A stretch of DNA of 48,734 nucleotides from Rhizaria sp. SCN 62-66. Lineage: Eukaryota. The translations under genes were made by a program, and so were the position numbers. The stretch spans positions 1-48,734 of the forward strand of contig MEDY01000219.1 in NCBI GenBank assembly GCA_001724265.1. Reading direction: 5' to 3'. Positions within the stretch are counted from its first letter, which is position 1. Each line of letters opens with the position of its first letter. Below are positions 10,437 to 37,340 of this stretch, piece by piece. The notes under the pieces were generated by a model that was not told where the DNA came from, made no database searches, and saw nothing but the letters and a program-made list of their open reading frames with translations.

Positions 10437-10874
10437 GTGGATTGTGTTGGTCGGTTGGTTCTGTTTGTCGCGCTGAAAAAACAAGTATGAGAAAGTACAC
10501 TGTAAAGGCGAGAGATTTTGGAGGTGAGTTTTGAATATCTTTTAGAATATCACATATAGTGTTGTGTCATTCTATTTTTATTTTAAACGACGATTGAATA
10601 CGAGTAGAATATGATCATTCATTATAGCCACTTCTCGGTCATTCCAACGGCTATTTTTCCGAGACTGTCAGTTGTGACACAACTTTTGCGCATTTTATGA
10701 GGTCCACACAGGAGTACTGTCATTGATGGTTAAGATTTAAACTCCGTAAGCTTAGATGCACATTAGACAAGACAAATTTAACTTTATTATTTCATCAATA
10801 CACCAGAAGCCACTCATATCTGGCCATTTCAGCGTGACAATTGCCGCGACGTAGCAGTGCGCACAACGACTTGC

Positions 10875-12745: not shown

Positions 12746-13355
12746 GTTTTTAAATCACAAAAAATAGCAGAGAATGCGTTTACTGCTGTTTAAGTCCGTT
12801 ATTTCACGTCAAAAGTCGGTGCTGCGTCAGACTTTTGCCGTGACAGCGACGGCACACAAAACCGTTTGTGGTTAGCTTAATCAAAACAAAGATCTCTCAT
12901 TGTTATCAAAGTCTCTCAGCATAGGGACTTGATATAAGGTTTTCAGAGTGCGGTGATGTAGGAAAATCTTAATATTATTCGTTAGAGTATTATATTAGAA
13001 CCTAATTTTGAATAAAACAAACGATCCCCACGCTGGCTGACGAGCGCCCCAGCAAACGGGTGTTGATTGATGACCGTTACCGAATTCGAAAGTCGAATGC
13101 ATGCCATAATTTCATCGTAGTTTAGTGAGATGACACTTTTCAGCGATTTTCGTTGATTGAAATTATCTGATGCTTTATTTAATCTTTTGTGACTTGCGCT
13201 TTACCCTTACTATGCATCTTTGTAGGACCGAGTCAGTTGTGTCAGTTTCTCTTACTGGTCAGCAATAGTTTCTTCTGCTTTCGAGATCTAATACGGCAGC
13301 ATCGCATCTATTTTGACATTGCTGAGTGATTTACGCTGTTTTTCGAAAGTGAGCA
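12746..13355. promoter_or_regulatory. AT-rich spacer between divergently oriented genes (ACB-ankyrin and kinesin-like); presumed bidirectional promoter region
   Basis: Inferred only from gene orientation and base composition; no specific element was recognised. Confidence 0.4.
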
Positions 13356-16300
13356 ATGTCGTCTCGCCCCACATCAGCGCTTAGGCCATCAGGAGCCCAC
13401 GCTGGCGCCGGAGCCTCGCCTGCTACTCAAGTTTCAGCCCCTGTCTCCTCCGCGATAAGCTGTGCGTCCGTATGCGGGCCCGACGCAGTGTCATACCACC
13501 TGCGTCTGCGTCCTTTCTGCGGGACTGCCGCAGAGGCTGCGATCTCTGCCGTCTCGACATCTTCGAGCAACAACTTTCAACATCTTATCTCGCTCCCTCC
13601 TGTCACTCACAACATGACCAGTGGCTTGCGGCCCACGTCAGCGGTCACGGCCCGCGGTCAACCCGCGTTTGGACCCGTAGCTGCGGAAGCCGTTTAGCTT
13701 GTTTCCCCCGCGCTTGCCGCCGCATTGCCCGCGGCGTCCATCGACGCTGTGGCTCGGATGCGCGTCAGCAGCTGCAGCGACAACGGCGACGACGATGACG
13801 GCGACGGCGACGATGGTTGGCATCTCACAGCACACGCGCCCGCAGCCGCGCATGCTGGCCTCTTTGCTTCGGCCGTGGCGCCTTTGCTTGACGCCACGGT
13901 TGCCGGCCACAGCACCGCGCTGCTGACGTACGCCGTGCCGTAGTCCGCCAGAACTGCGCCACCCGCTCCCGCACCAACCGTATCCACGGCATCAGGAGAC
14001 GTTGAGATCAATCACAGAGGCGAATGTGGTGTGAGCGCAGATGTTACTGTCTCCTCAGAGCACTGCGCATATCCGACGTCGGACGCCACGTACACAGTGC
14101 TTGGCGCACCTCCGCCGCCGCCCGCGTCTTCGCTCCCACCATCACAGTCACAATCGGTGTCGGCGCAATCGGCGGTGGCGTGTTTCCCGCTGCCTGCGCC
14201 TGCGCACACGTCGGCCACGCAGCTGCACTTACAGTCGCAGTCCCAGCAGCCGCAGTTACGGTCACAGTCGTTCGCGTTCTCCTACGAGAAGCACGGCCTG
14301 CTATACGCTGCTGCTGACGCGCTGCTGCGTCTGGCTGCGCTGCGCGTCCCTGCCTCTGTTCCCACTATCGCGACTGCTACTGCTTCTGATGAGAGCAGCA
14401 AGAACAGTGTTGATGTTGGCGCGCGTGTGTTTCTGTCAATTCTTGAAGTGCGCTTCGACAGCAGCAATAACAACAACAACAACAGCACCACTCGTGCTAC
14501 GACGACGTCCAGCAGCAGCCGCACCGCGACTGGCAGTGACGACAGCTCAAGCACTGTTTTCGACGTCACAATGGCTACAATTGCTCCGCACAGCACCTTT
14601 GTTAGTCACAGCAATGACGCCGTCAGAAACAGCAGCAGCAGCAGTGCTGACGGCGCTGTGAACAACGGCGTGCCGCTCGAGTGGGTCCGCGATGGTGCCT
14701 CGCTCTCCTGGTCTCCGTTGACTTCGCACCTGAGCGCCCCCGTGCCGCGCCCGCAATCCGCAAGCTTGCGCCGTCCGCTCTCCGCGAAGTCGGGCGCAAG
14801 CGCAAGCTCGTCCGCCGCGCTGCCTGGCTTCCAGCGCGTCGAGCTGCGGTCGCTCTCACAGGTCGCCAACATTGCTGCGGCCGTGTCGGACCGCCGTCAC
14901 CGCCGCGCCGAGGCAGGGCTTGCTGCTTGCGCGAGCACGATGTTTGTGTTTACTGTTGAGACTGTGGTCGCTGCTGGCAGTCGCATTGCTGCCGTCGATG
15001 TCAAGCCAGGCGCCGTGGTGACCAAGGGCACGTTTACGCTCGTGGAATGCCCTCTGCCCACCAGCAATAACAGCGCTAGTGATGCGAACACTGACGCAGT
15101 GGCTTCGTTTCCTGCGCCACTTGCTGGCGTGCTCACCGTCGCTGCTGCGGTCTCCGCGCTCGCACACAAGCGCCGTGCACTTGCCCGTGCCCCGCACACC
15201 CGCGTCGCCGCCGCCCTTGCACACAGTGAAGCCGCCGTTGCCGCAGCCGCACAGCGCGCAGCTGACGAGGCCGCTGTGGCCACAGTTGCCGCTGCAGCCG
15301 CTGAGGACAACGTGTACGAGAAGATGAGCCGCATGGCGCGCGGGCCCGCGCCGCCGCCTGCAAGCCCGCTGGCGCCCGCCGCGCTGTCAGCGCTGCTGGC
15401 GCCGCCCGCAGCCGCCGTGGCGCAGCTGCACGGCGCGCTGGCTGCCGCGGGCGCGCGCGCAGTGGCCGCAGCGGGGCTGCCGGCGCTGGCGCGGCTGGGC
15501 CGCGACACGCTGCCGACCATCGCCGCGGTCGCTGCCGTGCGCCACGCCGCCGCTGCCGCGCTCGCGGGCGCGACTGAGGCCGCCGCAGTTGCTGCAGCGG
15601 GAGTCTTTGTCTTGCCAACGCCAGCGCACTCGGAGGCGGGCAGCCACAGGGCGGGCGTGGTGGTGGAGAGCGGTTTTGCAGTGCTACCGCGACTGTGTGC
15701 GCTGCTGAAGCGGGCCGAGCGCGCCACTGCGCAGCTTGAGCGACAACTCGCAAGTGCGAACACGCAATCCGATAATGGCAACGACAACAATATTATCAAC
15801 AATAAGCGTTATAATGCCAGCGGTCACAAGGCTGAGGTGATTGACGGCGCGACGCAGCAGTGGTTGCGCGCAATTGTGTTTGCTCGGGCTGCACTGACGG
15901 GCTTTGCACAAGCCAACCGCGCTTTTATCCCAGTTTCTGTGAGTGTTGCGACAGCAGTTGCTGCGAGCATCCGCACGAACGCACATGCTGACGCGAGCAC
16001 TCACCCAAATGTAAGTGATGATGTGTTTGTGGGCAGGGGCAGCCGGAGCGGTGGTTTCTCAGCCTCGCGCTCCTTGTGGGCGTCTGTGCCGAAGTTAGGC
16101 AGGCTGATATCCGCAACCAGTGTAACAGTCAGCAACGACGCAATGGGCCCAAATGGCAATATTGCCAAGTCGGAGCCGCTGTTGACGCCGTTCTCCCCGT
16201 TTGACGCCATGCTCATGCTATCCCGACTTTCGCCCGCCAGCGCGCACGTTAACAGCAGCGGCGTGGACTGTGTGGCGCTGTTGCGGCTGTGGGCTGCTGT

Positions 16301-19300
16301 ACTGCAATCCCCTGCGCTCGCTGCAATTGCCAGCACGCTCACCCTTTATTTCAACAATAACAACAACAACGGCGTTAGCGCCACCCAGATTGATGCAGTT
16401 GCTCACAGTGTCGTTGCGACCGTGGCGGCTGCTTTCCGCGCTGCGCTCTCGCTACTTTTGCGCAGTGGCGACCGTGAGCTGAACGGTGACGGTGAGGACC
16501 TTGATGCGCCTCTGGAGCCCCAGTTTGATGCCGCAAGCCCTGCATGGGCGCTTTCGCTCCTGCGCGCGCATCCGGCGCAGTCGCCCTTCCCATCCGTTGC
16601 ATCGCTGCTGCCCGCCGACGCCGCCTACAACCACAGCCGCAGCGGCGGCAACGGTAGCGACGACACTGCGCACAGCTGCGGTGGCGCAGTGAGCGCGCAG
16701 CGGTTGGCGGTACTGGGGCACGTCACGGCCACGGCGCCGCGCTTTGGCGCGGACTTACGGCCCTGGGCGCGCTTTGACCGCCAGCTAGCTGCTGTGGCAC
16801 CTCTCGCCACGGCGCGTGCCGCCGCCGCTCTTGCGACGACGAGCGCCGCCGCAGCGGGGAGCAGCAGCGGCCCGCTTGTCGCCGTGCTGTTGGGTGCTGC
16901 GCCCGGCGCTGCGGACAGCAATTCCGCTGGCACCGCGGCTGCAAACTCTGGTTCTGCCTCTAACTCTCGGCCTGCCTCTGCGCTGCTGGCTGCGAACGCT
17001 GACGCTAGTGCTGGCGCGGCGCGACCGCTATCAGCAACTGCGTCAGCGGCGGCGTTGGCTCTGCTGAGGGAGAGCTCGGCGCAGTCGCGGGTGCAAAGCG
17101 CTACCGTGCGCACTGCATCAGCGCGCCGCATGGGCTCTGCGCGGCGTGCTGCGGCCGACTCTCGGCCTGGGAGCGCCATTAGGCCTCTCAGCGGCGGTGG
17201 GATTGGCGATTGCTCAGGCGGCGGCATGGTTATCCGTGATATTGCCAGTGACGAAGACGACGAGGGCGACTACTATGAGGACGACGATGAGGTCTACAGC
17301 GTGACTAATGATGCCGAGGCTGCGGTCAACAACGACACTGACCCTCTTGATCTTGCATCATGGCAGCAGCACAACAGTGGCACCATTGGCAGCGTGTCAG
17401 CGTTTGCAGAGGCGCTGATCGACGTGCTGGCGGAGCTGGAGCAGGCCAAGACCGCGCTGAGCGCTGAACGTGGCGCGCGCGCTGCCGCTGAGGACGCTGC
17501 ACGACACGCTAAGTCCGTGCTTGGCCGCCATCTCGGCGTCTTTGGCTCCACGTCTTCGGCTACACCCGCCGTCACAGTTCCCGGGTCCGGCTTGGCGGCA
17601 ATCGGCGAAGATGGCGCGGCAGTGGCGGGCACCGGAGGAGGCGCAATGGGGGCGTACGGCAAGCACAATGTCGCCGCCAACACTGCTAAGGTTGCAGCCG
17701 GACAGAGCACTGCCGCGCGCAGTCGCAGCGGCCGCTTTAGGCCCACGTCCGCGCCGCCCGTCTCCGCTACGTCTGCCACTGCTGCTGGTGCTGCTGCTGC
17801 TGTTGATAAGGAGTCTGAGCGGCTTCTGCCTCGCACTGCCGTGCCGTCGGCCGCCGCAGCCGCTGCCCGCGCAGCCGCGGCCGAGTTTCTCGCGCGCGGC
17901 ACTGTCTCACAGCAGCTTGCACTCGCGCTCACTGGCGGCAGCGCCGCGGCGGCCGCGGCCTCTGACCGGCGCAAGGGTGCCGCGCGCCGCAGCGCGTTCC
18001 CCGGTCGCAATTCTGTTGCCAGCGACGCCAGCGCCGGCGCAGCGGAGGGCGGGCTGTTCGTGTCGCTCATGTCGCCCGACGCGGGGCCCGGCGCGGGCTC
18101 TGCCACGGGCGCGGCGGTGGCTGCGGCCGTGGCCCGCGCGCGCCGCCCCGCGTCTGCCGCGACCGCGCGCATAGGCTCCGCGAACAACGCGACTGCGGCA
18201 GCCGCCGCCGGTGCTGCCTGTGGCGGCGAGCGGATGTTGGGCGAGGCCGAGCGGCATGGCGCGCGCGCTGTGACGCAGGGCGCTTTTACCGTCGGCGCTG
18301 CCACGCAGGTTGTTGCAATCGAGTCTGGGTCCGCGCACGTTGACGCTGATGCTGATGCCGACGCTGATGCCCGCGCTGGCGCTGACGGTGCTGTTGAGGC
18401 GGGCGCAGTGACGGTGGTCGACGCTAGCGGGTTTGCGCTCACGGTCAACGCGCCCGGGGACACGCGGTCCTTCCCGCCGCCGCAGCAGACTGCGACGGTT
18501 GCGGCCACAGCTGCCGCTGCGACAGCGACTGGGTCGGCGACCGCGGCAGCGACGACTGTGGCTGCGGCGAGTGCGGGCGCAACGGCTGCGGCGCTGGCTG
18601 CGGTTGCGGGCAGCGGCAAGGCCGTCTCTGCGGCTGCTTCGGCGCACTTGGCCCTGCAGCTTCAGTCGGCGCTGGCGACCGTTTCCGCGCTGCGCTGCCA
18701 CAACGCGGCGCTGTCTGCGGACCTAACCGCCGCGCGCGCCGCCGCCGCGTCCTCATCGACTGCAGCTGCTGTGTCAGCATCGGCAGCTGCGGGTTCCGAG
18801 GCCCGCGCGCGCGCTGCAACCGCGGCCGCGCGCGCGGCGGGCGAATGGGGCTGCGCGCGCGCGGGCGAGGCCGCCGGGGCGCTGGCGCTGGCACGCGACA
18901 CCGGCGCGGGCGTCGTCGCCTCAGGCTTGGGCGCCGTCGCTGCAGGCGTGGACCGCGACATGCAGCGGCTGCGCGCGGCGACGGCGCGTCTCGACGACGC
19001 GCTGCACAGCACGCGCACCGGGCACGCCCCGCCCCACGGCCGCGGCGCTGCTGAGGACGCCGAAACAGCCTCTCTGCCCTTTGCGGGGGGCCCGTCCGCG
19101 GTGCGCCCGACCGCGGCCGCGACCGCTGCAACGGCGGCAGCCGCTGCGGCGTCCGAGGCCGCACTCCGCGAGGAGCTCGCGACTGCGCGCGCCGCAGCAG
19201 CGTCTGCCTCAGCCGCGGCGGCGTCGCTGGCGGCTGAGCGAGCGGAGCTGCTGCAGTACGCGGCTCAGACAACCGCGCTGCTGGATGCCGTGGACCGTGG

Positions 19301-19937
19301 CGCGTTCCCCGTCACCGAGGCCCACGGCGTGCGCCGCGTGACGGTGCCACGCGCGGCCAAGTTTGCGCTCGCGCTGCCGGCCCCGCTCAAGGCGAGTCTC
19401 GCCGCCGCAGCCGCCACGGCCGCTGCGGCCGTCGCCTCGGTCGCTCCGGGCTCCGGCGCCGCAGAGCAGCAACAGTTCGCGGACGGCGGTGGCGAAAGCG
19501 GGTACGTGGACGCGCTCAGGGGCGAGAACGCGGCGCTGCAGCTCGAGGTGCAGCGGCTGCGGCGGCGCGAGCAGCAGCGTCTGGCGGTACTGCGCGCTGC
19601 CAACTCGGCCGCCGCCGCCGCAGTGCTCACCGCGCAGGAGCCCGGCGTGAACGTTCACGGCGGCGGCAGCAGGAGCAGGCCTGCGACTGCGACAACGCAG
19701 GCGGCGCTGCCTCTTTCCATGGCCCAGACACAAGCTCAAGCTCAGCAGCTGCAGCGGCAGCGGCCCTCGACAGCCCACAGTGGCCACAACCCCAATGCGA
19801 TAACAGCAGGAGCTCCCCAGACCGGGGACGCGGGGGTGCACGGCTTCACGCTGGGCCGCAACCGCGGCGGCGCGGCCTCAGGACGGCCAGTCAGCGCGGG
19901 ACTTGACCGGCCTGTGGTTGCGCTGCCTGGCCGTTAA
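13356..19937 (+). CDS. Degenerate kinesin-motor-like protein with C-terminal coiled coils (~2193 aa when two in-frame TAGs at 13695 and 13941 are read as sense)
   Basis: ORF-track pieces 13356-13697, 13725-13943 and 14031-19937 share one frame and are separated only by TAG. Kinesin-fold landmarks appear in order across the TAGs: YHLRLRP, LFASAVAPLLDATVAGHSTALLTYA, HGLLYAAADALL, VFLSILEV, LPGFQRVELRSLSQV, STMFVFTVET, KGTFTLVEC. Stop TAA 19935-19937. Confidence 0.72.
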
Positions 19938-21003
19938 GTCAGTGATTTAAAGCATGTGTTTTTCGAGTGACAAAGATATTTTTCGGCGGTGACGCGACTT
20001 AAGGGGACTTCTCAAAGAGCTCGCAAGCTGATGGTATGTATTTGAGACATATTCTATTACATTTAAACTTGTACATTTATAATTTTAACTTCATTTGAGT
20101 ATTGATACACAATTTCTTTGATTCTGCGCAGCAGCGTTACGTTACTCTTGCAGCATCCAATGATACTAGTCACCAGAACAAGTTATGTTTGCGCTCACTA
20201 GTAACAATTGAAGGCAAATTGCACATACACTGTTGCAGCACACCCTTCTTATTTAAATTTACTGATGTAGCAAGTCACAACATGAGGTAGGGTCTTCAGT
20301 TACAGTTTCTTCGAGTCGTTTGTAGTTTGTGGTCGAGCAAAGAACTTCGTATCCCAGCGCTGTATAACTTCTGACTGTGCAAAAATACTTATCTATGGTA
20401 AAAAAACAAGTAAGTTCTCGCATGCACCGTTGAGGTGAGCTCCTAAGCCCTTATGCATATTAATATATCATTGAACGAACGAAAATCATCTGTTGAAGCG
20501 GCTACGGGGTCGGCGACGTGCGATGGCAGACTGAGGCTAATTTTTCGAATTATCTCAATCTATAAACGTTCCTTCCGCATGCAGTTTACTGTTCATTTAC
20601 AATACTGATTATAGTATTTGGTGCTGTAATTACGTTGCTACTGACGTTTAAATCCTTTAGTTATCGTCATTTTGAATTGTTGTTCTTGGCACGATTCGGA
20701 CACTGCATCGTCCTCCTTGTTGACCTATCTTTGCACGCTACTAAATCTGGCATTTTCTCACTGCAAGGACTAATATTTACTGCACGTTAATTTTTCTTTT
20801 TGCACCCGGTCGCGTTATTGCACTTCTGCTTCAGAGCGTGCACTACGCATCTTTTATCTTATCATCGGCCTTCGCCCGCGCCTTCCTCGCAACTCTTGTC
20901 AGACTGACTGAGGACCGAGCCCTTCTCTGTTTGCTCCCGCACGCGTGCGCCCCCGTCTCCGCAACCGTTTCGCTTGTTTGCGACGCGCCTGCCCGCTCCG
21001 CCG

Positions 21004-21445
21004 ATGCAGCACGGCCTCGGTGACATCCCCGTCACGCTCCGCTTCCCCGCGTCCACACAGGCGCCAACTCCTCGACACCAGCAGCGCCCGCAGCAGTCGC
21101 AGTCTCAGCCCCAGTCTGCGGCCGCGCGCAGCGATGCGGTCGACGCCTCTGTGGACCTGTTCGGCGAGTCCGAGCTCGTTCCGCTGCCGCCGCCATCACC
21201 TGCCCGCGCGTCCTCGTCCTCCTCGGCTACTGCAGCCTCTGCTGCAAGTGCTGCAGTGAACACAACGAGTTCCTCGAGCGCGAGCGCGAGCGCGAGCGCG
21301 GGCGCGGGCGCGGGGCTGGGCATGAGCGTGGGCGCGACGGCGACGGCGATGACGCACACGCGCCCGTTCGCGTACCACATCCCTGGCCCGCTGCCCGCCG
21401 AGATCGCGCTTCGCGACTACCCCCGTTCTTTCAATAGCTACACTA

Positions 21446-21476
<31 letters not shown>

Positions 21477-24400
21477 TGGCAGTAGTCACAGCGCTGCGGC
21501 GAGCGCGGCGCCGACCCCAGACCGCCGGCGCTCCCGCGGCGGGCCCTCCGCCACCCCGCACGCCTCCTCCGCCTCTGCCTCAGCATCAGCCTCGGCCTCT
21601 GCCTCGGCCGCCGCTGGCGCTGGCGCTGGCGTGGGCGCGACGGTGGCGGTCGCGCCGACTCTGGAGTTGACGGCGTACTCGTCCTCGCTGGGGCCGCTGT
21701 CCGCGCTGGCCGGCGCGCTGTCGGCGAAGCTCGCCGCCGCGGCCGCGGCCCGCGACGCGCGCGCGGCACAGTGGGTGGCCGCCCGCGCCGCCGCGCTGCT
21801 GCAGCGGCTGCAAGCGCTCGCGCCCGCGGAGGAAAAGGACGCGCTCTTCAACCCTAACCCGCACCTTACCACGCCCGCCGCCGTCGCCGCTGCCGCTGCG
21901 GACGCCGCCGCCGAGGCCGCCGCGGCGCAACAGCAGTAGCAGGTGGCGACGCCCGCGCTGGGCCCGCGCGGCGCGCCGCTGGGCTCGGCTGCCGGCACAC
22001 CCTTGCACGGCCACGGCTACGGCCACGGCCACGGTCACGGTGGCGCGGGCGCTATGTCGGCTGCCGCGCTGCTGCTGTCGAGCCCCGCCGGCGGTGGCAG
22101 CGGCTACGGCGGCAGCAGCGGCGGCCTCGGCGGCAGATCAGGGCTCACGGTGCGCGTGGGGGGCTCGCCCGCGGGCGCCGGCGCGGGCAGTGCGCCGCGG
22201 CGGGGCTCGGAGAAGAAGGCCAAGGTGCTGGCGCTGTTTTCCCCCGTCTCCGCGAATAGCAGCAACGTCAAGGTGAACAGCAACGTGCTGAGCATCAACA
22301 ACAACAGCCCCGCGAGCGCCACACCCGTCGTCGTGAGCAACCCGAAGCTCCAGCTCCAGCAGCAGAAGCAGCAGCAGCAACAGTGGCAGAAGCGGACGAG
22401 CAGCAACAACGACGACAACGACGGCGACACGGACGAAAGCTCCGACTCCGACTCTGACACCGCGGCCGCCGCTGCCGCCGAGGCCGAAGCGGAGGCCCGT
22501 CGCCGCGCGGCCGCGGTTGCCGCGTTGCACGCCGAGCTGGAGGCGCTGCCGCAGAGCGTGCCCGCGGCCGTGACGGCGGACCCCGACGCCGCGGCGCTGG
22601 CGGCCGACGCCGCGCTGCTGCGCCACGTGTCGTGGCTGCTCTCGGTCACCGCGGCGCGCGCGCAAATCTTGGCCGGCGGGTCGCTGCCCGCGCCGTTTGG
22701 CCCCGCCGCGCCGCCGCCGATGCAGCAGTACGCGCAGCAGCTCGCGCTCGCCTCCAACAGCAGCAGCGACAGCGACAGCGACGACGACAACGAGGACGAC
22801 GAGGACGATGACGGCAAAGCTGAAAACGAAGACGAGGACGAGGATGATGAGGAGGCCGCAGCGCGCGCACAGGGCGCGGCCGAGGGCCGTGAGTGGGGCC
22901 GCCGGTTGCAGCAGTGGCAGCGCGCTCTGCGGACGCAGTCGCGGCTGCAGCAGCGTCAGCACGCGCGTCTGCAGACGACCGAGACGGAGCCGGAGCCTGC
23001 GCACGTGCTGCCGCAGGGCGCCGCTGCCGCGACCACCGCGCCTGCTCCGGAGTCCGAGTCTGAGTCCCAGTCCAAGGGCCTTGTGGCCGATTCTAAGGGG
23101 CTCGAGCCCGAGACTAAGTGGGACGCCGCGGACTCCAAGTCCGACCCATCCGTCCCGGCGCTCGATCTGCCCAGCGCCCACGGCTCCGACGCGACCGCCA
23201 CTACGGGCCTCGAGAGCAGTAGTGGCAGCGGCCACAGCTCCAGTTACGGTGACTCCGGGCGCCGCGCGTCGACGGCGTCGGCGTCGTCGCTGTCGGCGTT
23301 CGCGAGCTGGCCGCTGAGCCACCAGGACACGCTGCTGGCCACGCCGGCCGACTGCCTGGCCTGTCTCTCGCACGCGCTCGCCGGCTGCACCCACCACCAC
23401 AAGCACCGCGCCGTCTCCACCCCCGCGCCCGCTTGCAGTGCCGCCCACTGCAGCGTTGGGCACGGCCGCGGCAGCGTTTACGGCGGCGCCAACGGCGGCG
23501 GCGCTGCGGTGGCGGCTGCGCTGGTGTCGCCCGTGGGGCTGGTGTCATCATTCCCCCCCGCGACGGACGCGGCGGGCGACGCGCTCTACGGCTCGCCGCT
23601 CGCTCTCCCGCCCTCGAACCGCGGCGGCCACCACGGCAGCAACTACAGCAGCTACTGCAGCAACAGCAGCAGCAACGGCGGCAGCGGCGCCGTGCTGAGC
23701 CCCGCGCAGCAGGCCGCGGCAGCAGAAGCGGCGCGCGTCGCGGCCGTGGCGCCCTACCTGCCGCCCGCGCACGGCGGCGGCTGGCGCATCCCGCCCCACG
23801 CGCTGCCGCCGCCGCTGCTGCTCGCCAAGCGCCCGCGCGCGCACGTGCTGCCCTTTGCGCTCGCGCGCGACACCGCGCTGGCCAGCTCTGTTCTCGAGCT
23901 TCCGCAACTGCAGTCGCACTCGGCACGGCGGTCGATTTCGCTGGCTGAACTCGACGGCGACGGCGCGCAGCAGCGCGAGGTGCTGTCCGCGCTGTGTCTG
24001 TCCGCGGCGCCGCCCGTGGCGACGGCGCGCGTGGTGCGTACTGCGACGGCGCACACGGTCACCACGCCGCTGCTCACCGACGTCGCGCAGTGCGCCGACG
24101 ACATCAACAACTACAAGAACGCGCAGCACAACACTGGCGCCGCGGGTCCCGGCTCGGCGGGCGCGGGCTCGGCTGCGGGCGCTGGCGGAGACGTGTTCAG
24201 CGCGTACCTGACGCGGCACTTCCGGCAGCTCTTCAGCACCCCGTCGCACCCGCTGGGGCTCGCCGTGTGCCTCTTCGTGTGGGGCGTGCGCGAGCGCGCG
24301 CTGCGCGTGCCGGACCTGGGGCTCGACCTCTCCATCTCCTCGCAGTCGCCCTACTCGCCCTACGTCGCGCCGCCGGCCGGCGCGGGCACCGGCGGCGGCG

Positions 24401-27400
24401 GCTACGGCGGTGCCAACCCGCTCGACTCGCCCCGCGGCGCTGGCAGCGGCACGGCGACGCCGCAGCCCGCGGGCGGCAGCCGGAGCCGCCAGTCGCGCCG
24501 GTCCACCATGGGCGGCGGTGGCTCGGGCAGCGCGCAAAGCAGCCGGCCCGGGTCGCCGCGCCAGTCGAGCGGCGGCGGCAACGGCGGCAACGGCGGTGCC
24601 GCCGGTGCTAGCGGCGCTGGCGGCGCTGGAGCTGGCGGCGCTGGCGCTGGCGCTGGCAGCATGACTTCGCCGTCGGGGCTCGCGTTCCACGCCTCACCGT
24701 TCATCTCGCGACCCTCGTCCTTTGTCCCCAGCAACAGCCATAACAGCAGCAGTGCGATTGGCGCCGCCGCTGCTGCTGCTGCTTCGGCTTCCAGCGCTAG
24801 CAAGTCAGCCAGCGGCGGCGTGACGACCAGCCAGAGCGACGCGGCCGCTGCGGCTCCCGCTGCTGCAGCTGCTGCGACAACTGCGTCGGCTGCCGCGAGT
24901 GCGGGAACTGCGACTGTGCCGATGCCGTCGCCGACCGTCACCGCGACGGCCTCCGCGACGGCGGCGCGCCCGCTGCCGATGAACAACAGCGCGCGCGCTC
25001 TCTCCCTGTCCACGGGTCCCAACGATAGCGCGAGCGGCGGGCTCGTGGTCGGCAGTCTGGGCAGCGTCGGCTCCCCCGCTCCCTACTCCATCGGCTCACG
25101 CTTCTCCTTTGCGGACCAGGTCACGGGCGCGTCCGTCGCCGCCGCAGCAACAGCCGTGGCGGCCGCCGATGCCGCTGCCGCCGCCGCTGTGGCCGCCGCG
25201 ACCCCGCCTCGCCGCGCGCGCCCCTCGGCGCCGAGCTCGCCCTCGATGCACCGCACCAGCTCCTCCACTGGCGGCAACGGGAACGGGAACGGCAGCAGCA
25301 GCGGCAGCGGCAGCGGCTACGGGCGGCAGAGCAACGCGATGTGGCTGGCGCTGCCGGTGACCGCGCCGCCCGGGCTGCCCTCGCCGCCGCCGTTCCCGCC
25401 GCGGCCAGTGGCGCACTCGCACGACCCATACGTGACCGCGCTGGACCTGGCGGACCACCTCCCGCTCGCAGCGTACCTCCCCGCACAGGCGCTCTGCCCA
25501 CAAAGCTGCAGCGCGCAGCAAGTGCAGCCGTTGCAGCAGCAGCAGCGGCGGCTGCAGGGCGGCAAGGCGGGCGCGGTGGCGACCGCGGCTGCGCTCAAGG
25601 CCATCGCCGCGGCCACCGCGAGCGCCCATATCAGTGCCTACGGCGACGGCGACGGTGATGACGACAGCGGCAGCGGCAGCGGCAGCGGCAGCGGCAGCGG
25701 CAGCGGCAGCGGTGAGTTCTACTACCGCGCGCCGCGCAGCCGCGGCGGCGGCGTGGTCGTCAGCGGCGGGCGCGCGAGCACGGGCTACTACCTGCCCTCC
25801 ACGGAGGGCCTGCTGCAGTCAGCGCACGGCCCGCTGATCGGCGGAGAGGCCGGCCGCGCCGTCGCCGCGCTGGCGTCGGCGCGCGCGCGGCAGATCGCGC
25901 GCTACATGAACGCGTCCGCGCGCGCCAAGCAGCGCCAGCACGCGCGCCGCCTCCAAGGCCTCCTTGTCGACACGAGCAGCAACTGGAACGGCGTCGATTT
26001 CGACGACGAGGACGACGACGAAGACGAGGAGGAGGAGGAGGATGAAGGCGATGTCTTCGTTGTCGGTTTCTCGCCGTTTGGCGGCCCCATCACGGCCCCG
26101 CGCCGCACGTTGCTGCTGCTTGCACAGCGCTCCCTCGCACAAACGCTGCGCATGCTCACGCTATCACAGGCCGGCACCGTGCCCTTCGCCGCCGCAGCCG
26201 CCGCGGCGAACCTGTTCCCATTCGTCAACGGTAACGACGCTCTCGTTCCCGTTGGCGCCGTGCTGCTGCCGCGTCTGCCCGCGCTGTCGCTGCCGCTGCT
26301 GCCCGCGCCGCTGCTGCCGCCGCCGCTGCCTGTGGCGCCGCTTCTCTCCCCGGCCGAGCTGGCGGCGGAGACGGCGGCGATCCAGGCTTTCATTGCGCAC
26401 CACCACCAGGCAACGCTGGCGTTGTACCCCGCGCTGACGGCCTCGCCGGCGTGCGCCGTGGTCGCCGACCTGGCGCGCGCCGCGCTGGCGGACGTGGTGC
26501 ACACGGCGCTGCTCGACGTGCTGCACCTGCTGTACAAGCTGGCGTGCTGCCACGACGACGCCGCGCTACTCACGGCCGCGCGCAGGCTCGCTATGCTGTC
26601 GCCGGAGCAGGTCGGCGTCGCGCCTGTCTTCGCGCTCAGCAACCGCTTTCCGGGCAAGGACGCTGGCGAGCTCTCCGCGCGCTACAAGCGCCATGCGCGC
26701 GCCGTTGACGCCGCGCTCGAACAGCACCGCCGCGCCTGGGCTGCCTGGACGCTCGCACGCACTGCCACAACGTCGGTGACGGCGATGAGCGCGGTTACCG
26801 AGAGTACGAGCGGAAAGAGCGCACGCAAGAGTCAGAAGGGCAAGAAGGGCAAGAAGAACGCGAGCGAGAGTGAAGGTGCTGCTACAGTTGCTCCAGCGCT
26901 GTCCGCGGCTGCCCTGGCCGCTGCGGGCGTGCCGCGCGCGTTGCTGTCGCTGCCGCCGCCGCCGCTGCTGCTGCCACACCCGCCGATCGAGCGCCTGTCC
27001 GTGGCGCCGTATTACCGCGCGACCATGAAGCTGCGGCTGCTGCCCGCGCTGCCGACGCTGGGCGAGCGCCTCGACTGCCTGTCCTCGGTGCTGAGCTCCA
27101 TCGCAGACTCAGTCAAGAAGTACTACGACGCCCGCCCTGCGCAGCGGCCCGCGGACGCGTCGCGGCTGCTGATGTGTGCCGATGATACGATCGCCATCGT
27201 CGCGTTCTGTCTGATCCAGGCGCAAGTGCCGTGTTTGCTGTCGACGGTGCAGATGATGTGCGACTTGGTGGACCCCTCGGAGGCGCTGGGCGAGAAGGGC
27301 TTTTGTCTCGCCACCATCTCCGCCGCCGCCATGTACATCATCACGCTCGCCGACCAGCAGGCTGAGGAGGAGGCTGAGGCTGAGGCCGAGACCGCCGGTG

Positions 27401-29854
27401 ATGCCTCCGCCACGTCGGAGGCTGGTGTTGAGCGCCGCCGCAAGGGTGGGTTCGAGGAGCCTGACTGGAACAAGGTTTATGAGGACTATTTCGAGCTCGA
27501 GAAGCGTCTGCTTGCGCTTTCTGCCGACCACAGCACCACTGCTGTTGCGGGTCCTCTGGCTGTATCCGGTACGTCTCCGCAGACCGATAGTGCGGCCACA
27601 ACCACAAATGGCAAGTCGGGCTCCGGCTCCAAGACAAAGCGTGTCACTTCTGACACGAATACACCTGCGACTACTGCTGCGTCTACTGCTGCGTCGTGTG
27701 TTCGCGTGCTGCAGTTTGAGGGCAACGAGTCAGCTTCGAGCAGTGCGCAAACTAGCGCCAGCGACGCGCATGCTGCGCAGTCCCCGCCGCAGTCCCAGTC
27801 GCAGTCGCACATTGGCGCGTTGGCTGCCGGCGTAAAGGGCAAGGGCACTGGCACTGGCAAGGATGAGGATGAGAGCGAGAACGATGACAGCGAGGATCTT
27901 TTGCCGCTAGGACTCAAGCGCACGGCCTCCAAGTCCATCACCTTTGCTACCAACCACGGCTCGCCATTCGCCGCGCTCAGCAGCACCAGCAACACGGCAG
28001 GCACCGACGGTGACAACGCACGCGTGCCAGCGACTGCAACTGCGACGGGGACTGGGACTGGGAGTACCACGCTGTCCGCGTCTTCCTCCGCGTCGTCGCC
28101 GCGCCGCGCGGGCACGCCGCTGCTGCCGCCGCCGTCGCTGGTGCTGGCCGCGTCGCCGCGCTCGCCGCTGGCGTCGGTTCTGTCCTTCGCGCTGGCGGCC
28201 GCCTCGCCCGCCGGCGGCGCGGGCGGCGCGGGCGACGACGCCGACGCCGACGGCCGCGCCTACAACCCCGCGCACGACGCCGGCAGCGGGCTCGGCGCGC
28301 AGCTCCTGTCGCGCCACCTGCACTCGCAGCAGCAGCAGAAGGCCGCCGCTGCCGCAGCCGCCGCAGCGGCGGCGGGCGGTCTTAGAAGCTCGCGCAGCGG
28401 TGTTACCGCCAATCCTACGGGGCTCCGGCGCAGTGCTAGCGCTAGCGTGGCCGGCAGCAGCGGCAGCGGCAGCGGCAGCGGCAGCGGCCTTGGCTCCGCG
28501 CCCGGCTCCGCGCAGGGCGCCGCGGCCGGCGCGTCGGGCGCGCGCGCTGGTGTCCGCACTGGCCCTGTCGGCCCCAGCGGGCTCGCGCGATCTCTCTTCA
28601 CAGCCGGTGGCGGCGGCAGCAACAACACATCGCCCACCGCGACCAGCAGCTCTATCGAAGTCCGCGCCGCGCTGCCCGAGGACGAGACCCAGGCCGCGAC
28701 CGCGACTGCCCCGACAGTGCTCACAGTCACCCCGCCCACGCCGCTGGCGCCCACTGCGGCGTCCGGCACGGCCACGACGGCGGCCGCTGACCTTACCCCG
28801 ACGCAGTCGCCCTCGCACGCCGCCGCCGCCGCCGCCGCCGCTGGCTCGACGGCGGTGGTCGCACATGACCACGCGACCGACAACTACTTCGTGCGCATGG
28901 CGCGCACGGCCGTGCTGGGGCTGCTAGCGGCCGCCGACCTTACGCCCAACGGCTTCCCCATCCCGCTCTCGCAGTCGGCCACGGCGGTCGCGCGCACGCC
29001 GCTGCGCCCCGGCTCCAGCTCGAGCTCGGCCGGGAGCAGTGGTGGCGGGTGGACGCTGCTGTCGGAGAAGGACGGAATCAAGACGTTCTCGCGCTCGCTC
29101 CCGGGCTCCGCGCTGCCACAAGTCAAGGCCACGGCCGTGTTCGCCATCACGCCCTCGGTGCTCTTCTCGCTGCTCTCGGATCCCTTCCGTCGGCCTGAGT
29201 ACGACGCACTCTGCCACAAGGTCACGCCCTTCGGCGACCTGGCGCGCGACGTCGGCCCCGTCACGTGCCCGGACCTTAACCCCGACTCGCTGGCGCTCAC
29301 GCACCTGCACTACCTCGCCAAACACTGGCTGCAGCGGTCATACCGCGACGCCGCTACGGTCCACGGCACGGCCTCGCTGCCCACGGGCGCGTACATCTCA
29401 GCCTGGCGCTCCGTCTCGCACTCCGGCTGCCCGCCCGCGGCGCCCTACCACCGCGTCGACGTCATGCTCGGCGGCTGGGTTGTACGTCAAACTATCTATA
29501 CTGTGATGTTCATTTTCTCGTTTTATCCTCAAGATATTCGCGACATTTGTTTGATTCGACGAGTCCCATCTCATATTTTTTTTTCTTTTTGTTCTTCTTG
29601 ATTTAGATTTTGCCTTGGCGCCCGCCGACGCGCCGGCCGCTCGCTGCGTCCGTGGCCGCTGCCACTGGCGGCGCGCTGCGACCGCCGCAGTCACCCTCGC
29701 TGTCGCCCGCGATGTCGTTCGCCGCGCCTCCCGCGGCCAACACGCCCTCAAATCGTTACGCGAGCAGCAACGCTGCTGGCGCGGCGCAGCGCGGCGGACT
29801 GCCCCCGCGGCCGCAGCAGACGCCCACCGCAGCCGCTGCCGCTGCTGCGCAACA

Positions 29855-31002: not shown

Positions 31003-34000
31003 ATGGCTAGCCCTGCTCGCAGCCTCGTCGGCTCTCTACCTGCTTCCTAGATGCCTGCGGTTTCGGGCGATGTTGCGGCTCCGGATTTTATGCCAATCTC
31101 ATCGCTGTCAGCCTTCACACCCGTCGCGCCCTCGAGCCTCTTCCCTGAGCTTCCTGTAGCGAGTTTTTCCGAAGCAGTTGCTCCTGCTCCCGCGGCCGCG
31201 CCTGGGACTCCTTCACCTCCGACTCTGTCACCATCGTGCTCGCCGCGCCTTGCACCACGTGCTGTAATCTCGCGCGGCGCGCAGGACCCTCTCTCAGCAC
31301 TGCGCGCGCGCTACCCGAACCAGCCGCCCCCTTCCCAGCCGTCGTCATCGCAGCTCGCGCTCGACGCTGCCGGCTCACACTTCCCTCCACAGCCGCTTTC
31401 AACCGCTTTTGCCGACGCTTCCGAGCCGGCCACGCCCATGAGCACGGCGGCAGCGACGGCCGCAGCTGCTGCGGGCTACAGGCTCGGCGCTGCGACGCGC
31501 CTCTCACTCGCTATTGCACATGCACAAGCCACCGAAGCCGCACAGGTACGTGTTCACGGCCTCAGATATCTCAAACGGCTATCGTCACTAAAATGTACTG
31601 CACGCTATCTCCACTATATTCTCTTTTCGTTTTGTTATACTCACTGAACATCCCCCCATCTTGCCGTTTGCTTCATCTCAACCAGGAGAACCCCCACGGC
31701 GCCGCGTTGGCGCAAGCGCACGCGCTGGTCCAGGCGCAGCAGGCCGCCGCCAACGCGCCTTTCAAGGTCGCCAACCGCATCCTTGCCGAGACCGAGTCCG
31801 CCACCGCCGCTGCCGCCGCAGCCGCCGCCGCCGCTGCTGAGGCCGCCTCTCTGTCTGACTGCGCTCTCGCCGCCTCCGCTGGCGACGCGGAGGGAAAACA
31901 GGCTGACGCGTTCGCTTCGCCGGTGTCGCCGTCGCAACTGCAGCCGCAACCGACCGGCGCGGCTGCCGAGACTAAGCCCGAGCCCTCACCTGCTTCCGCA
32001 CTCTCATCAGCGGCTGACTCAGCGAGCGCTGGGATGATCTCAGGCGCAGACAACGCTGCCCCCGAAGACGACTCGTTCGCCGCGGCGCAGCTGCCGCCAC
32101 AGTCGCGCTCGCGGTCACGGTCTCCGCACCGCTCGCAGTCGCGGTCGCCTCACCGCTTGCACAACGCCATCCAGCAGCACCACCAGCCCTTGCATCCGCC
32201 ACACTACAGCCACAGCTACGGCCGCTTCTACACCCCGATGCCTCGCTCCACGTCGCCCTCACACAAATCCACCGCCGCCGCCGCCGCTGCTGCTGCCATT
32301 GCGGGCGACGTGACTTCAGTCAGCTCCGACAGCAAGGCCGCCCTCGCCGAGGCCACGAGCATCGGCACCGCGACCGTGCCGGTCACCGCAGGCGCAGGGT
32401 CGCCGCACTTCGCGCTGCCGCAGTCGGCCGCGGCGTCGGCGCTGGCTTACGCGCGCGCGCGCCACCGCCACAACCCGCTGGTGGCGTACCTCGACGCCCG
32501 CGCCGCGCGCGGGTACGGGCAGCCCGCCGCGCTCTCCGCAACCCCCGCTGCCGCCGCTGCCGCCGCCGCCGCCGCTGCCGACAACGCCGGTGTCAGCGCG
32601 AGTCTGAAGGTGAATGTGAATGCCAGTGCTGGTACCAGTGCACGTGGCGCCGGTGCGAACGGGGGCAACGTGGGTCCGCTCACGCTTTACACGTCTGCGC
32701 CCGCGCCGCCACCGCCGTCCCCGCTTGCGAGTGCGCCCCCGGTCTCCAGCAGCGCCCGGACTGCAGGCGGCCGCACTGCTGCTGTTGCTGGCAAGGCCCC
32801 GAGCAAGGTCCACGAGAGCGCCCCCGATAGTGCGTCTGCTGCTGCCACTGGTGTTGTTTTTGCCGGTGCTTTGACTGCTGATGCAGCTGCGGAGGACGCG
32901 GCGAACATGGGCGCGCTAGCACGTGTCATGTCTTCCGCCGCTGCCGCTGCCGCTGCTGCGGACGATGACAGCGACAGCCACACATTCGCCGACAGCGACC
33001 GCGGCGCGGTGTCCGCGTCCGTCTTGGCCTGGTTTCCCGCGCCGTTGCGCTCGCCCCCGCCTACGCCGCCCTCCGGCGACCGCGTCAGCAGTGACGCCGG
33101 CCCCGACAGCGCTCGGGGCCGGGCGCGCGCGGCCAAGACCATCGGCAGCACGGCGGCCAAGACCAGCGCGCAGTACTCCAACACCGCGTCGCAGGCTCGG
33201 GGCGCCGGCAGCCACAGCAGCAGCCGCCGCGGGAGCCTCAGCGGCGGCGGCGGCGTGGTGCTGCCCGCCTTCATCGCCAACGCGCCGCAGCTGCCATACC
33301 AGTACACGCCCTCAAGCGCGCTGCGGACCACCGCCGCGCTGTCGGCCGCCAGCCCCGTGCTCGCGACGTCTGCGGCCGCGAGCCTCGCCGTGTCCACTCC
33401 CGGGAGCGTTCCCCCCGCGCCCGCGCCCGCGCTTGCGCTCGCGGCTGCGACAGCGGCTGCCGCTGCGCCGGTGGCGGTGACGGCGACGGCGCCAAGTCTG
33501 GCGTCCGAGTCCGCGGCGGCCGCGGCGGCGCGGCTGCCTTCGCGCTCGGCGACAAACCTAGCGCTGGGCTCGCGGTTTAACCCTCTGGCGTGCGTGTCTG
33601 CGCTCGCGCCCGGTTCGCTCGCCAGGCTTGTCGCCGCGGAGCAACAGCATCTCAAACAGCAGCAACAGCAGCAGCAACAGCAACTGCAACAGCAGAATGC
33701 CGTTGGCGCGGGTGAGGCTACGGACGGCGAGGATGCAGAGCTGCACAGCCAGCGTGATAACGCTGTTGCTATCCAGCGCGTGCAGTCAGTTTCACAGCTA
33801 CATCAGCAGCAACCCCAGCAGCAGTCTCAGGCCCAGCCCCAGGCGCAGTCGATGTCTCTGTCCCCACGGCGCCCGACTGCGGCGGCCGAGGCGCTGGCGC
33901 TCTCGTTCCTGTCCTCTGCGCTGCTCTCAGACTCGGGCACGCTGCCGCTAGACGTCACTACTGCGTCCATCCCCACTCTGGCGACCGCCGCATCGGCTGC

Positions 34001-36605
34001 TACGGCTGCAGGGCCGGCTAACAGCGCCTCTGCTGCGCTCTCCGCTACCGTGACGAGCGCTGCGGCGGCGGCGAGACCTGCAGCCGCGGTTGCGCCAGGG
34101 GCCCTGGCGGCGGGCGCCGGCGGCGAGAGTGGGAACTTCCTCGGCCAGAGCTCCGCGGAGACGGCCTCACAGTTTAATTGGCGCCAGAAGCAAAGCGTGC
34201 TCGCGCGCCAGCAGTACGTGCAGGCGCTCAACTCGACCAACGCCGGCCCCGGCGCTGGCGGCGTCGCCAGTGGTGCTCCCGCAGGCGTGGGCGCGGCGCT
34301 AACGCTGGACGCTGTCCCCAAGCGTTTCGGAGCGCTGGGCACCGCGCCGACGCCGACGTCGCACCCGTGGGTGTCGCCCGCAGCCGTGCTCGCGCTGGGC
34401 CTTGCGCCGCGCGCCGCGGACGGCGTCGTGCGCGACGCCGCTAGCCGCAGCAACGCCGCGCGTTGGCCCGGTGTCGCCGCCACGGCCAACGGACTCTCTA
34501 ACCCAACGCCTTACACCGGCTCGCCAGGGTCCCCGGCCCCCGGAATGCAGGGTGGCCTAACTACTTGCCCCGCCGCGGTGCCCTGCTCACTAACGCACGC
34601 GCTGCCGCGTGGGCTCTGCACCCCTTCGCCGCAGCAGCAGCAGATGCAGCCAGCACTCGCCACGCTGACTCTGTCGAACCCCAACAGCAACGGCAGCGGC
34701 AGCTTCAGCGGCAGTCTGAGCAACGGCAACAGCGGCGGCACGCCTGCGTCGGGTTTGACCACTCCGGGCGGCTACCCCGCGCAGCCCGCGTCGCAGGTGC
34801 AGTCTTAGGCACAGGCGCAGCTGCAGGCGCAGCCCGCGGCGTCGCTCTGGCCATCAGTGCCCGCGCGCCGCCTGCTGCAACACTTCCTCGTGCTGCACCA
34901 GCAGCTGCCCACGGGCTCCGCCGACGGGCTCGTGGCGGCCTCGTCGCGCCCGCACCGCGCCACGCTCGCTGCCGCCGCCGCGCGCCTGCCCGCGCAGCTT
35001 CAGGCGTTGGCCCGCGTCCCCGCGCGCGCAATGGCGCTGCCGCGCGGCGGGCTCGGCGCGCGCGCGGGCGCCGTGCCGCCGCTGCCCGCCATCGTGCCCG
35101 GCTCGCATGGGGCGCACAGCGGCGGCGGCAACCACGGGCTCGGCTACGGCTACGGGCTGGGCAGCAGCAGGGCCGCGGTGGCTGCGGCGGCGGCGGCGGC
35201 CGGCGTGGCGGTTAACGGCATCGGCTCGCGCGAGGTGTCGCTGCTGGGCGGCGCGGGCGGGCTCGGCGGCGGCGGCATGGGGCTCGGCCTCGGGCTCGGG
35301 CTCGGCGCAGGCGGTCCGCTGCCGCACGAGCAGGCGCGCATGCTGAGGCACCTGCGCGCGAGAGGTGAGGTCTCCACAGAGTCGGCGGCGTCGGTCGCCG
35401 CGATCACGGGCACGGACCACGCGCACCGGCGTGCAGTGCTCGCGATGCACAACGCACATGATAAAGCGCGTGGTGCCGAGGCGCGCAGTAGTGCGTTGGC
35501 GGGGGTGGACGAGGCGGACTCGGAGCAGGCGCGGCTTGACTTCGAGAGCCGGCTCAAGGTGTTGGGCGACATCGCTCAGGACATGGATCTGCCCGACTCT
35601 ATGCCCGACAGTAACCACGTCAGCGTCTCCGGGAACACGGAAGCAGATGCAGCGGGCACCGAGACGGCGCAGACTGACGCCGACACGATCGCCGAGGAAG
35701 ATGCTGACGCCCACGATGACGCCGACGCAGACGCCGACGCGGACGCTGACGCGCAGTACGACTCCGGTTTGTTCAACGCCATCGCCGCCCACGCCGCCTC
35801 CGGTCACCTGCAGCCGCACTCGTCCGGGCCGTCGCATGGGCCCGGCGCGGTGGTGGGTGGTGGGGGAACGCGCCTCACGGGCCGCACAGTGCGCGCGATG
35901 GCGCGCCACGTCGCGCGGCAGGGCGCGCGCGGGCTGCCTGGCGTGGTGTTGTCTACCACGCTCTCCGCCCCCGCGGACGCGGTGCGCGAGCCGCTGCTGG
36001 CCGGCGACGTGCCGCTATTCCTCTCACAGTCGCAGTCTCAATCCCAGATGCAGGCGCAGTCGCAGGCGGCGGTGGCCGCGGTGCCCGCGAAGGTGTTTGC
36101 CACCGGCACGAGCTCACAGCAGCACCACCACTACACGCAGGGCCACAGCAGCAGGAACAGCTCGGGCGTGGCGGCTTACCAGGGCTACGGCCCCGCTGCC
36201 GCCGCGGCCGCGACGGGCGAGCCTGGCGCTATGATGGTGACGCGTTCGGGCACGCTGCCCACCAACGCGCTCTACCCTTCGCTGCCCACCCACAGCCGCT
36301 CGGCCTCGCACGGCGGCTCTCACGGCCAGCTGAGTGCGCGCGGCGACCCCGCGCAGTCGCCGCTGACTGCGCAGATGTCCGCGACCATGTCCGCGTCGAT
36401 GTCGACATCGATGGCGGCGCCGCTGTCCGCACGCACGCAGCAGTCGGGGTTCGGTATGAGCGCGGGCACGCGCAGGCTCACGGCCGCGCTGTCCGCAGCG
36501 AAGGCCTCGCTGGCCGCGTCGTCGACAGCGTCGCCGACCGCAGCTATAACAACAACCGCGACTGCACCGCAGACTGGGGGCGCCTCTGAGCAGCTACAGC
36601 AACAA

Positions 36606-36651
<46 letters not shown>

Positions 36652-37340
36652 CTGTGGGCGGCGCTGGCGGCGTCGCCATCGGGTCCGCGGGCGCAAGCGT
36701 GACCGTGACGGCGGTGGGCGCGCGCGGCGCTGCCGACCCGTGGCTACTGCGCGTTGATCCATACACGCCACTGCCGCCCCTTGGCGCAACAGCAACTGCT
36801 ACTGGCACAGCGCCGGCCACCGCGCCAGCCGCTGCAACGCCTGCAAAGGGAAGCAAGTCCGGTGTCGCTGGCGCTCACCGTGCACACAGTCACTCTGCCC
36901 ACTCTGCTCACGGTCGCCCTGCTCACGGTCACTCTGCTCACGGTCACGCGGCGCCCAACCACGTCCCTCTGCCGGTGAACCCGCTGTTGTTCTCCGTCGC
37001 GGTCGCCACGGCCGCTCGCACTGCCAACTCCTCTGCAATGCCTGCTGATGCGGATACGAGCTCAGCCCGCGCGCAACAACAGAGCGACGCCGGCGGTGAT
37101 GGCTCGCTTAAAGCGAAGCCGCGCGCTATGGGGCTGGTTTACGACGCTCTGCGCGAGCAGCAGCAGCACGAGCAGTTACAGCTGCAGATGCAGTACCGCC
37201 ATCCTCAACACCAGCAGCAGCAACAGCACGGACTGGGCCGCAGTCGCCACGTGCGCGGCGTGACCGGACGCGCGGGCGCAGGCGCTGTAGACGTAAATGC
37301 GAACGATATTGCACTGACTGCGCTCGTTTTCTCGCCCTAA
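31003..37340 (+). CDS. Large low-complexity (Ala/Ser/Gln/Gly) protein of unknown function; exons 31003-31545 and 31686-37340; in-frame TAGs at 31048 and 34806 (~2065 aa)
   Basis: ATG 31003 (MASPARSLVGSLPAS*MPAV) is in frame with ORF 31051. A phase-0 intron joins ...EAAQ to ENPHG.... ORFs 31236-34808 and 34857-37340 are one frame joined by TAG in SQVQS*AQAQLQAQ. Stop TAA 37338-37340, followed by an abrupt drop in GC. No recognisable domain. If the first TAG were a stop, the start would be ATG 31051. Confidence 0.72.
31546..31685 (+). other. Spliceosomal intron (140 nt), phase 0
   Basis: CAG|GTACGT donor, AT-rich body, ...ctcaaccAG|GAG acceptor; explains the frame change between ORFs 31051 and 31236. 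Confidence 0.88.
36597..36650 (+). repeat. CAG/CAA trinucleotide repeat encoding 18 Gln
   Basis: cag caa caa caa followed by a pure (cag)n run. Confidence 0.93.

Follow-up and report, generated by a model that had tools for sequence, protein, structure and literature searches.

Nuclear genetic codes that separate UAG from UAA are rare. Where UAG alone has been reassigned, the meanings reported are leucine, glutamine and, in Scotinosphaera, serine (PMC11687900); in the cases described in the literature surveyed, UAG is read as Leu or Gln when UAA is kept as a stop, and as Glu only where UAA has been recoded as well. Here we analyze a stretch of 48,734 nucleotides (the window), which is contig C219 (MEDY01000219.1) of a eukaryotic assembly of 34.9 Mb and 714 contigs (Rhizaria sp. 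SCN 62-66), and in which a VPS9/START-like gene carries an in-frame TAG at 21937 within a run of glutamine codons. A sequence-only reading of this stretch had taken the TAG for a synonym of CAG and the site for the clearest single case of UAG = Gln. The tRNA complement and conserved alignment columns of the genome instead make it probable that its nuclear code reads UAG as glutamate and keeps UAA and UGA as stops.

The site itself is as first described: positions 21922–21948 read GCG GCG CAA CAG CAG TAG CAG GTG GCG. The frame starts with an ATG at 21004, 311 codons upstream of the TAG, and remains open past it for 2,553 codons, 2,514 of them in exon 1, until a TGA at 29599, close to the estimates of about 310 and 2,500 codons given earlier. 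This apparent TGA falls within a probable intron, recognized by its end motifs and GC content (Table 1). GC on both sides of the TAG at 21937 is 0.74–0.81, compared with 0.42–0.44 in the flanking intergenic DNA, and the four frame-preserving GT..TAG candidates within 300 nt of the TAG all have a GC of 0.77–0.81, compared with 0.33–0.40 for introns of host genes. Therefore, neither a boundary between two genes nor an intron fits, and both were ruled out by GC and donor motifs, in agreement with the initial view that the gene runs on without an intron or AT-rich gap at this point. The TAG is real: two other studies yielded DNA contigs that contain it, with 0 differences from the window across 21894–22052 in run X5 and 1 difference across 21488–22562 in run X3, none being listed at 21937–21939. 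Assembly error is thereby excluded, and the CAG consensus that the sequence-only reading had named as a counterargument was not seen. Its claim that intact VPS9 and START domains lie downstream held for VPS9, which Pfam recovers; the START-like segment gave no match in a Pfam search and only a weak structural one (PDB E 0.0021), and is interrupted twice, by the intron and by an insert of low complexity.

Is UAG a sense codon throughout this genome? To answer this, 88 loci (731,900 bases) served to train a codon model; 11 of them had been picked because they hold TAG-bearing kinases and the eRF1 region. Under a strict rule requiring a coding-like frame on both sides, the internal stops comprised 20 TAG, 1 TGA and 0 TAA, and 15 of the 20 TAGs lie outside the sites chosen beforehand. 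Past the stop that ends a coding-like segment, the frame was still coding for 19 of 24 TAGs, compared with 1 of 51 TAAs and 1 of 42 TGAs. Conversely, the 74 coding-to-noncoding ends were made up of 35 TAA, 35 TGA and 4 TAG, so that UAA and UGA serve as gene ends; none of the four TAG ends is clean (a TAA directly follows the first, an intron donor precedes another, and the remaining two open onto 212 and 334 further codons). In-frame UAGs occur inside conserved genes, including eRF1, Suv3, UBE2J1 and kinases, at an overall frequency of about 1 per 6,000–9,000 codons (about 0.015% of codons; coding GC is about 70%). We regard it as nearly certain that UAG is read as sense in this genome, and on this point, as on the predicted continuity of the VPS9/START-like gene, the earlier reading was right. 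Standard-code gene calling truncates TAG-bearing proteins here: the public predicted protein P0252, identical to the kinase at L189, stops exactly before its TAG.

Two further observations concern the distribution of internal stops. A family of paralogous kinases with Sel1 repeats (L105, L106 and L107) has a lower GC content, and each gene carries several in-frame TAGs, exceeding the number in housekeeping genes. The TGA at L145:4330 (+) has a coding-like frame on either side, with 108 codons open downstream, and could represent readthrough, selenocysteine or chance.

The first line of evidence for glutamate is the tRNA. A genome-wide pattern for a CUA anticodon plus T-arm gave 23 matches, one of which ARAGORN calls a CUA tRNA. 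The gene is single copy, has a T-run just 3′ of it, and lies on a contig (C84) that carries host-like genes. It shares 47/73 positions with the genome's own tRNA-Glu(CUC), as against 40/73 with the runner-up isotype, 39/73 with Asp, and 33/73 (CUG) and 29/73 (UUG) with the two tRNA-Gln species. The first five acceptor pairs and the entire T-stem are the same as in the genome's tRNA-Glu; neither acceptor nor T-stem is shared with tRNA-Gln. The tRNA(CUA) also has U11-A24, U13-G22 and A46 and lacks base 47, features reported as Glu determinants in E. coli (PMC9976931), whereas the genome's tRNA-Gln has U46. In a blastn search of a phage collection, the 19 rows covering at least 77% of the tRNA comprised 10 tRNA-Glu, 9 unannotated and 0 Gln sequences, with weak E-values of 0.2–7. 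Its anticodon loop has C32, A37 and A38, where the genome's own tRNA-Glu has C38; in a human tRNA-Glu(CUA), a change of this C38-to-A38 type raised UAG suppression more than 20-fold (PMC12204705). By its sequence, the only tRNA(CUA) found probably derives from a tRNA-Glu.

Several other properties of this tRNA were recorded. ARAGORN labels it "Pyl", although G18G19 are present, the T-loop is normal, the anticodon stem has 5 bp and the cloverleaf as a whole is canonical; its folding energy is unremarkable (z −1.5). The D-arm is unlike that of the genome's tRNA-Glu(CUC) and resembles bacterial and phage tRNA-like sequences, with up to 77% identity over 96% of the length (to an actinobacterial plasmid); the tRNA may have descended from an unseen tRNA-Glu(UUC) or be partly foreign. 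A pattern for tRNA-Glu(UUC) had no match, although its gap was one base too long for this to count against such a gene. Thirty-five metagenome matches were rejected as relatives, most being, in our reading, tRNA-Arg(UCU) and unrelated CUA tRNAs (best score 51/72), and tight patterns found no relatives in prokaryote genomes or viral contigs.

The second line of evidence comes from conserved columns. The TAG in eRF1 falls in a column that, across 120 rows, holds E109, D10 and V1; that in the hinge of a TKL kinase, in a column with E144 and Q1 (145 rows). The corresponding columns contain D93, E8 and Q1 in Suv3 and D32, N32, H17, S15, T15 and E7 in UBE2J1 (120 rows each). Internal TAGs in variable columns (four kinases, one UCH and PLA2G12) were kept out of the score. 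Summed over the four sites, log-odds are +4.99 for E, +4.14 for D, −1.44 for Q and −7.39 for L, a preference for Glu over Gln of about 6.4 nats. In the same alignments, columns that are at least 80% acidic account for 3 of 4 TAGs, 18 of 27 host Glu codons and 0 of 18 host Gln codons (Fisher P 0.0026 against Gln); Gln-conserved columns account for 0 of 4 TAGs and 10 of 18 host Gln codons, a small sample (P 0.096). Together, the body of the tRNA and these columns make glutamate the probable meaning of UAG, and the proposal that TAG is a synonym of CAG is probably wrong.

The gene for eRF1 is of interest in its own right. The only one found has its TAG mid-exon, at residue 107 in the N domain, and ends with TAA; a second match of the search we take to be Pelota. 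We compared the protein with 117 homologues, omitting 3 long rows of 120. T32S, which turns the GTS motif into GSS, and G57S alter residues that are T and G, respectively, in 117/117 homologues, and T58K is shared solely with the closest relative, P0004 (84% identical), which retains T32 and G57. Given this relative, the code change may be confined to the present lineage. T32 has been linked to recognition of the G of UAG and is replaced by glycine (T32G) in Iotanema spirale (PMC5304391), whose standard-code relatives are described as retaining GTS (PMC9161772); T32A is reported to be lethal in yeast (PMC4381064). By analogy, serine at position 32 may be a viable compromise.

How might such a code have arisen? 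One possibility is that a copy of tRNA-Glu acquired the anticodon CUA in place of CUC and an A instead of C at position 38, would still be charged by GluRS, and would outcompete an eRF1 in which T32S weakens recognition of the third-position G. TAG would be kept rare, its source being whichever neighboring codon mutates. At 21937, the TAG probably derived from CAG by a C-to-T change and would most likely be a tolerated Gln-to-Glu replacement in a disordered poly-Gln linker (QQQEQ). More speculative, and in our judgment improbable, is that the code has been caught early, a weak single tRNA-Glu(CUA) facing an eRF1 part-blinded by T32S, with the UAG in eRF1 providing negative feedback: more termination by eRF1 at UAG would yield less full-length eRF1. 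Plant eRF1 has been described as autoregulated through readthrough (PMC5397192). Since at the observed rate a TAG would fall in eRF1 by chance about 7% of the time, such feedback is only a hypothesis.

Several observations weigh against glutamate. Only four TAG sites are well aligned, and the column score of Asp is nearly equal to that of Glu; we set Asp aside because the tRNA(CUA) is of the Glu type. The closest eRF1 relative has Val at the TAG column. Five paralogue pairs split: in two of them TAG stands opposite CAG (a Sel1 kinase and a ubiquitin fusion), in two opposite Asp and in one opposite Lys. Several TAGs, including those at 21937 and 34806, are within poly-Gln, and 4 of 33 TAGs have a Gln-rich context, above the 2.6% of Glu codons (P 0.01), although also below the 31% of Gln codons (P 0.01); this 33-TAG set has a false-positive background, as 8 TGAs and 12 TAAs passed the same rule. 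The tRNA has G73 where the genome's tRNA-Glu has A73, its anticodon stem has diverged, and it contains U31-A39, a pair that reduced suppression by a human tRNA (PMC12204705), so it is possibly a weak decoder. GlnRS can be attracted by amber anticodons in E. coli, according to published work, and the tRNA inventory comes from 63 of 506 candidates scored, such that an intron-bearing or collapsed tRNA-Gln(CUA) could escape.

One alternative, which we consider unlikely, is that UAG is ambiguous, yielding a mixture of Glu and Gln through a Glu-body tRNA charged by both GluRS and GlnRS or through competition from a near-cognate tRNA-Gln(CUG). The contexts of TAG lie between Gln-like and Glu-like, the paralogue pairs are divided among Q, D and K, and TAG is very rare, as though costly, all of which a mixture would explain. 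However, origin by mutation from CAG accounts for the contexts without ambiguity, and an optimized human tRNA-Glu(CUA) is reported to insert about 95% Glu, with Gln not among the residues listed (PMC12204705). If TAG arises by single changes from CAG, GAG, AAG or TCG and is tolerated in disordered regions, intermediate contexts would be expected. The neighbor-context test was itself undiagnostic: neighbor likelihoods are equal for Q (−3.9) and E (−4.3), and 167 of the Gln-flanked codons are GAG or GAA. Because CAG becomes TAG by one change, Glu codons interrupt Gln tracts, and the neighbor likelihoods are equal, the site at 21937 fits Q and E alike and is a poor test of the amino acid. More generally, poly-Gln context does not identify the amino acid of a recoded codon.

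Slightly less probable still is that UAG encodes glutamine alone (NCBI table 15), its decoder being either a tRNA-Gln(CUA) that escaped notice or the Glu-body tRNA, with GlnRS charging it. Reassigned UAG most often codes for glutamine (PMC11687900), and this meaning would suit the TAGs in poly-Gln runs such as those at 21937 and 34806, the two of five paralogue pairs in which TAG is opposite CAG, and the U35 and G73 of the tRNA(CUA). Yet the pattern, which is able to fit an intronless CUA tRNA of the Gln type, found none among its 23 genome matches, the acceptor and T-stem of the CUA tRNA are unlike those of tRNA-Gln, and TAG follows host Gln codons in neither acidic columns (3/4 versus 0/18) nor Gln columns (0/4 versus 10/18). 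This alternative would also need Glu-to-Gln replacements at a near-invariant kinase hinge and in eRF1.

The ubiquitin pair includes an unusual gene. At L140:1501-2085 (G000:C681), ubiquitin is fused to a peptidase S74 (endosialidase chaperone) domain and has TAG where host ubiquitin has CAG; the fusion is possibly of viral or mobile-element origin. The host ubiquitin itself (L138, L141 and L142) is divergent, with two extra N-terminal residues; visible ends carry a three-residue tail, the repeats look collapsed in the assembly, and a polyubiquitin junction was not seen at the ubiquitin loci examined.

TAG is frequent as the 3′ splice acceptor in this genome and there mimics in-frame stops at domain edges. 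Nine of 142 kinase matches had only TAG inside, 5 being internal and 4 intron ends, and 7 of 10 other sites inspected are 3′ splice sites. TAGs in eIF4A, kinesin, two dyneins, a helicase, Rab, SNF2 and four kinases proved to be intron ends and were dropped; that in eIF4A had resembled an invariant Gln, which is in fact a CAG in the upstream exon. Family searches for a conserved TAG found none inside ABC, WD40, AAA, DHC_N2 or tRNA-synt_1c matches. Loose filters for internal stops were unspecific, giving 83 TAG, 93 TGA and 93 TAA under one rule and 33, 8 and 12 under another. Code surveys of this genome need intron masking.

That TAG is still a stop, its internal occurrences being nonsense mutations, pseudogenes, assembly errors, cryptic intron ends or at most leaky readthrough, would fit the many splice-site matches, the lack of a TAG excess under the loose filter, and RNA run X6, whose listed pieces (20700–20867 and 21036–21193) do not span 21937, but is scarcely credible given the mid-exon TAGs in the only eRF1 gene found, Suv3, UBE2J1 and intact kinases, the strict counts, the avoidance of TAG at gene ends, the presence of a cognate tRNA, and a TAG at 21937 that recurs in two other studies without an AT-rich intron.

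Table 1. Coordinates of the features discussed (window positions unless a contig or locus is named)
Feature	Position	Strand	Remarks
In-frame TAG, codon 312 of the VPS9/START-like gene	21937..21939	+	sense, most likely Glu
CAA CAG CAG TAG CAG run (Q-Q-Q-X-Q)	21928..21942	+	
Exon 1, mostly low-complexity	21004..29481	+	gene of ~3,090 codons, ATG 21004
VPS9 domain	27013..27348	+	Pfam PF02204, E 1.3e-10, residues 1692-1803 of the ORF starting at 21940
START-like segment, weakly supported	29044..29481	+	PDB 3qsz, E 0.0021; runs on into exon 2
Probable 125-nt GT..AG intron	29482..29606	+	GTACG..TAG ends, GC 0.33; contains apparent TGA 29599
Exon 2, 267 codons	29607..30410	+	terminal TAA 30408-30410
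Second in-frame TAG, Gln-rich context	34806..34808	+	in 31149-37340 frame
In-frame TAG	13695..13697	+	in 13353-19937 frame
In-frame TAG	13941..13943	+	in 13353-19937 frame
tRNA(CUA), intact gene	G000:C84:76008-76080 (L045:1489-1561)	- on L045	ARAGORN

The window contains other genes. By eye, the N-terminus of the 13353–19937 (+) frame is degenerate and kinesin-like, with the P-loop position taken by one of the TAGs; Pfam gave no match. At 38348–40852 (−) lies a TPR-Hsp70 fusion protein (Pfam HSP70, E 6e-200, plus TPR); the open frame antisense to it matches the NAD-GH family and is presumably a shadow ORF. The genes for a ribosome-binding GTPase (2–2341), a 2,500-amino-acid FHA protein (2934–10541) and an ACBP-ankyrin protein (10875–12683), all on the minus strand, have no internal TAG, and their visible ends are TGA or TAA.

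The host is an uncultured single-celled flagellate with GT-AG introns and 14 dynein candidates, and the window sequence is also present in bioreactor and wastewater metagenomes. In a quick Suv3 tree (42 rows, the host's own row 15% filled), the host's clade had an SH-aLRT of 100 and fell within a 16-row group that includes Amorphochlora (93), a weak hint that the host may be rhizarian. A PDB search with the host Hsp70 gave no match at a strict cut-off. The only 18S gene (L065; G000:C706:4459-8903) is divergent, has a GC of 0.41 unlike host coding DNA, and contains four group I introns, one with a His-Cys-box homing-endonuclease-like frame. It looks heterolobosean to us and may come from another protist rather than the host.

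Searches of the literature, the supplements of the ciliate surveys aside, turned up no earlier account of a code in which UAG is Glu and UAA and UGA are stops; non-canonical codes in heteroloboseans are the subject of Panek et al. 2025, as cited in PMC12574857 and PMC12328842. If our reading is true, a code in which UAG is Glu and both UAA and UGA still terminate would add one more independent variant, from outside the ciliates and in a GC-rich genome, a setting that misfits the AT-pressure route proposed for Blastocrithidia. With the tRNA and the eRF1 changes together in one genome, and T32 unchanged in a near relative, it should be possible to test directly how T32 contributes to reading the third-position G and how far GluRS tolerates A36.

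The systems most similar in their stop codons are Iotanema spirale and the phyllopharyngean ciliates Hartmannula sinica and Trochilia petrani, in which only UAG is reported as reassigned, to Gln, with UAA and UGA as stops (PMC5304391, PMC11687900). Iotanema even alters the same threonine of the eRF1 GTS motif, as T32G rather than T32S (PMC5304391). The host differs in having a Glu-type tRNA(CUA) and acidic sites, and nothing about it points to a fornicate or a ciliate. The rhizarian exLh and TARA phyllopharyngean metagenome-assembled genomes, with UAG = Leu and UAA and UGA as stops, likewise change UAG only, and the host may also be rhizarian; however, Leu scores −7.4 at the host sites and the host tRNA(CUA) has no long variable arm.

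Closest in the amino acid is Oligohymenophorea sp. PL0344, where UAG also stands for Glu but UAA for Lys, leaving UGA as the stop, and which is described as having Glu-like tRNA(CUA) genes (PMC10553269). It has ten of these compared with one in the host, where TAG is very rare and UAA is a stop (35 of 74 ends). Peritrich ciliates and Blastocrithidia also use Glu at UAG, the latter via a tRNA-Glu(CUA), as part of UAR = Glu (PMC11687900, PMC12153298). They recode UAA too, and Blastocrithidia also UGA, with UAG at a reported 1.4–1.7% per codon, whereas in the host UAA and UGA are ordinary stops and TAG makes up about 0.015%; UAA as a sense codon, a trait of the UAR = Glu codes and PL0344, was not observed in the host, as judged from the strict internal count and the gene ends. 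Finally, the engineered human tRNA-GluV13(CUA) shares with the host tRNA a Glu body, a CUA anticodon and the C32-A38 pair reported as needed for efficient UAG reading (PMC12204705). The host tRNA, whose activity is predicted, has A30-U40 and U31-A39 rather than G30-C40, yet it bears naturally the C32-A38 change that engineers needed for a therapeutic Glu suppressor.

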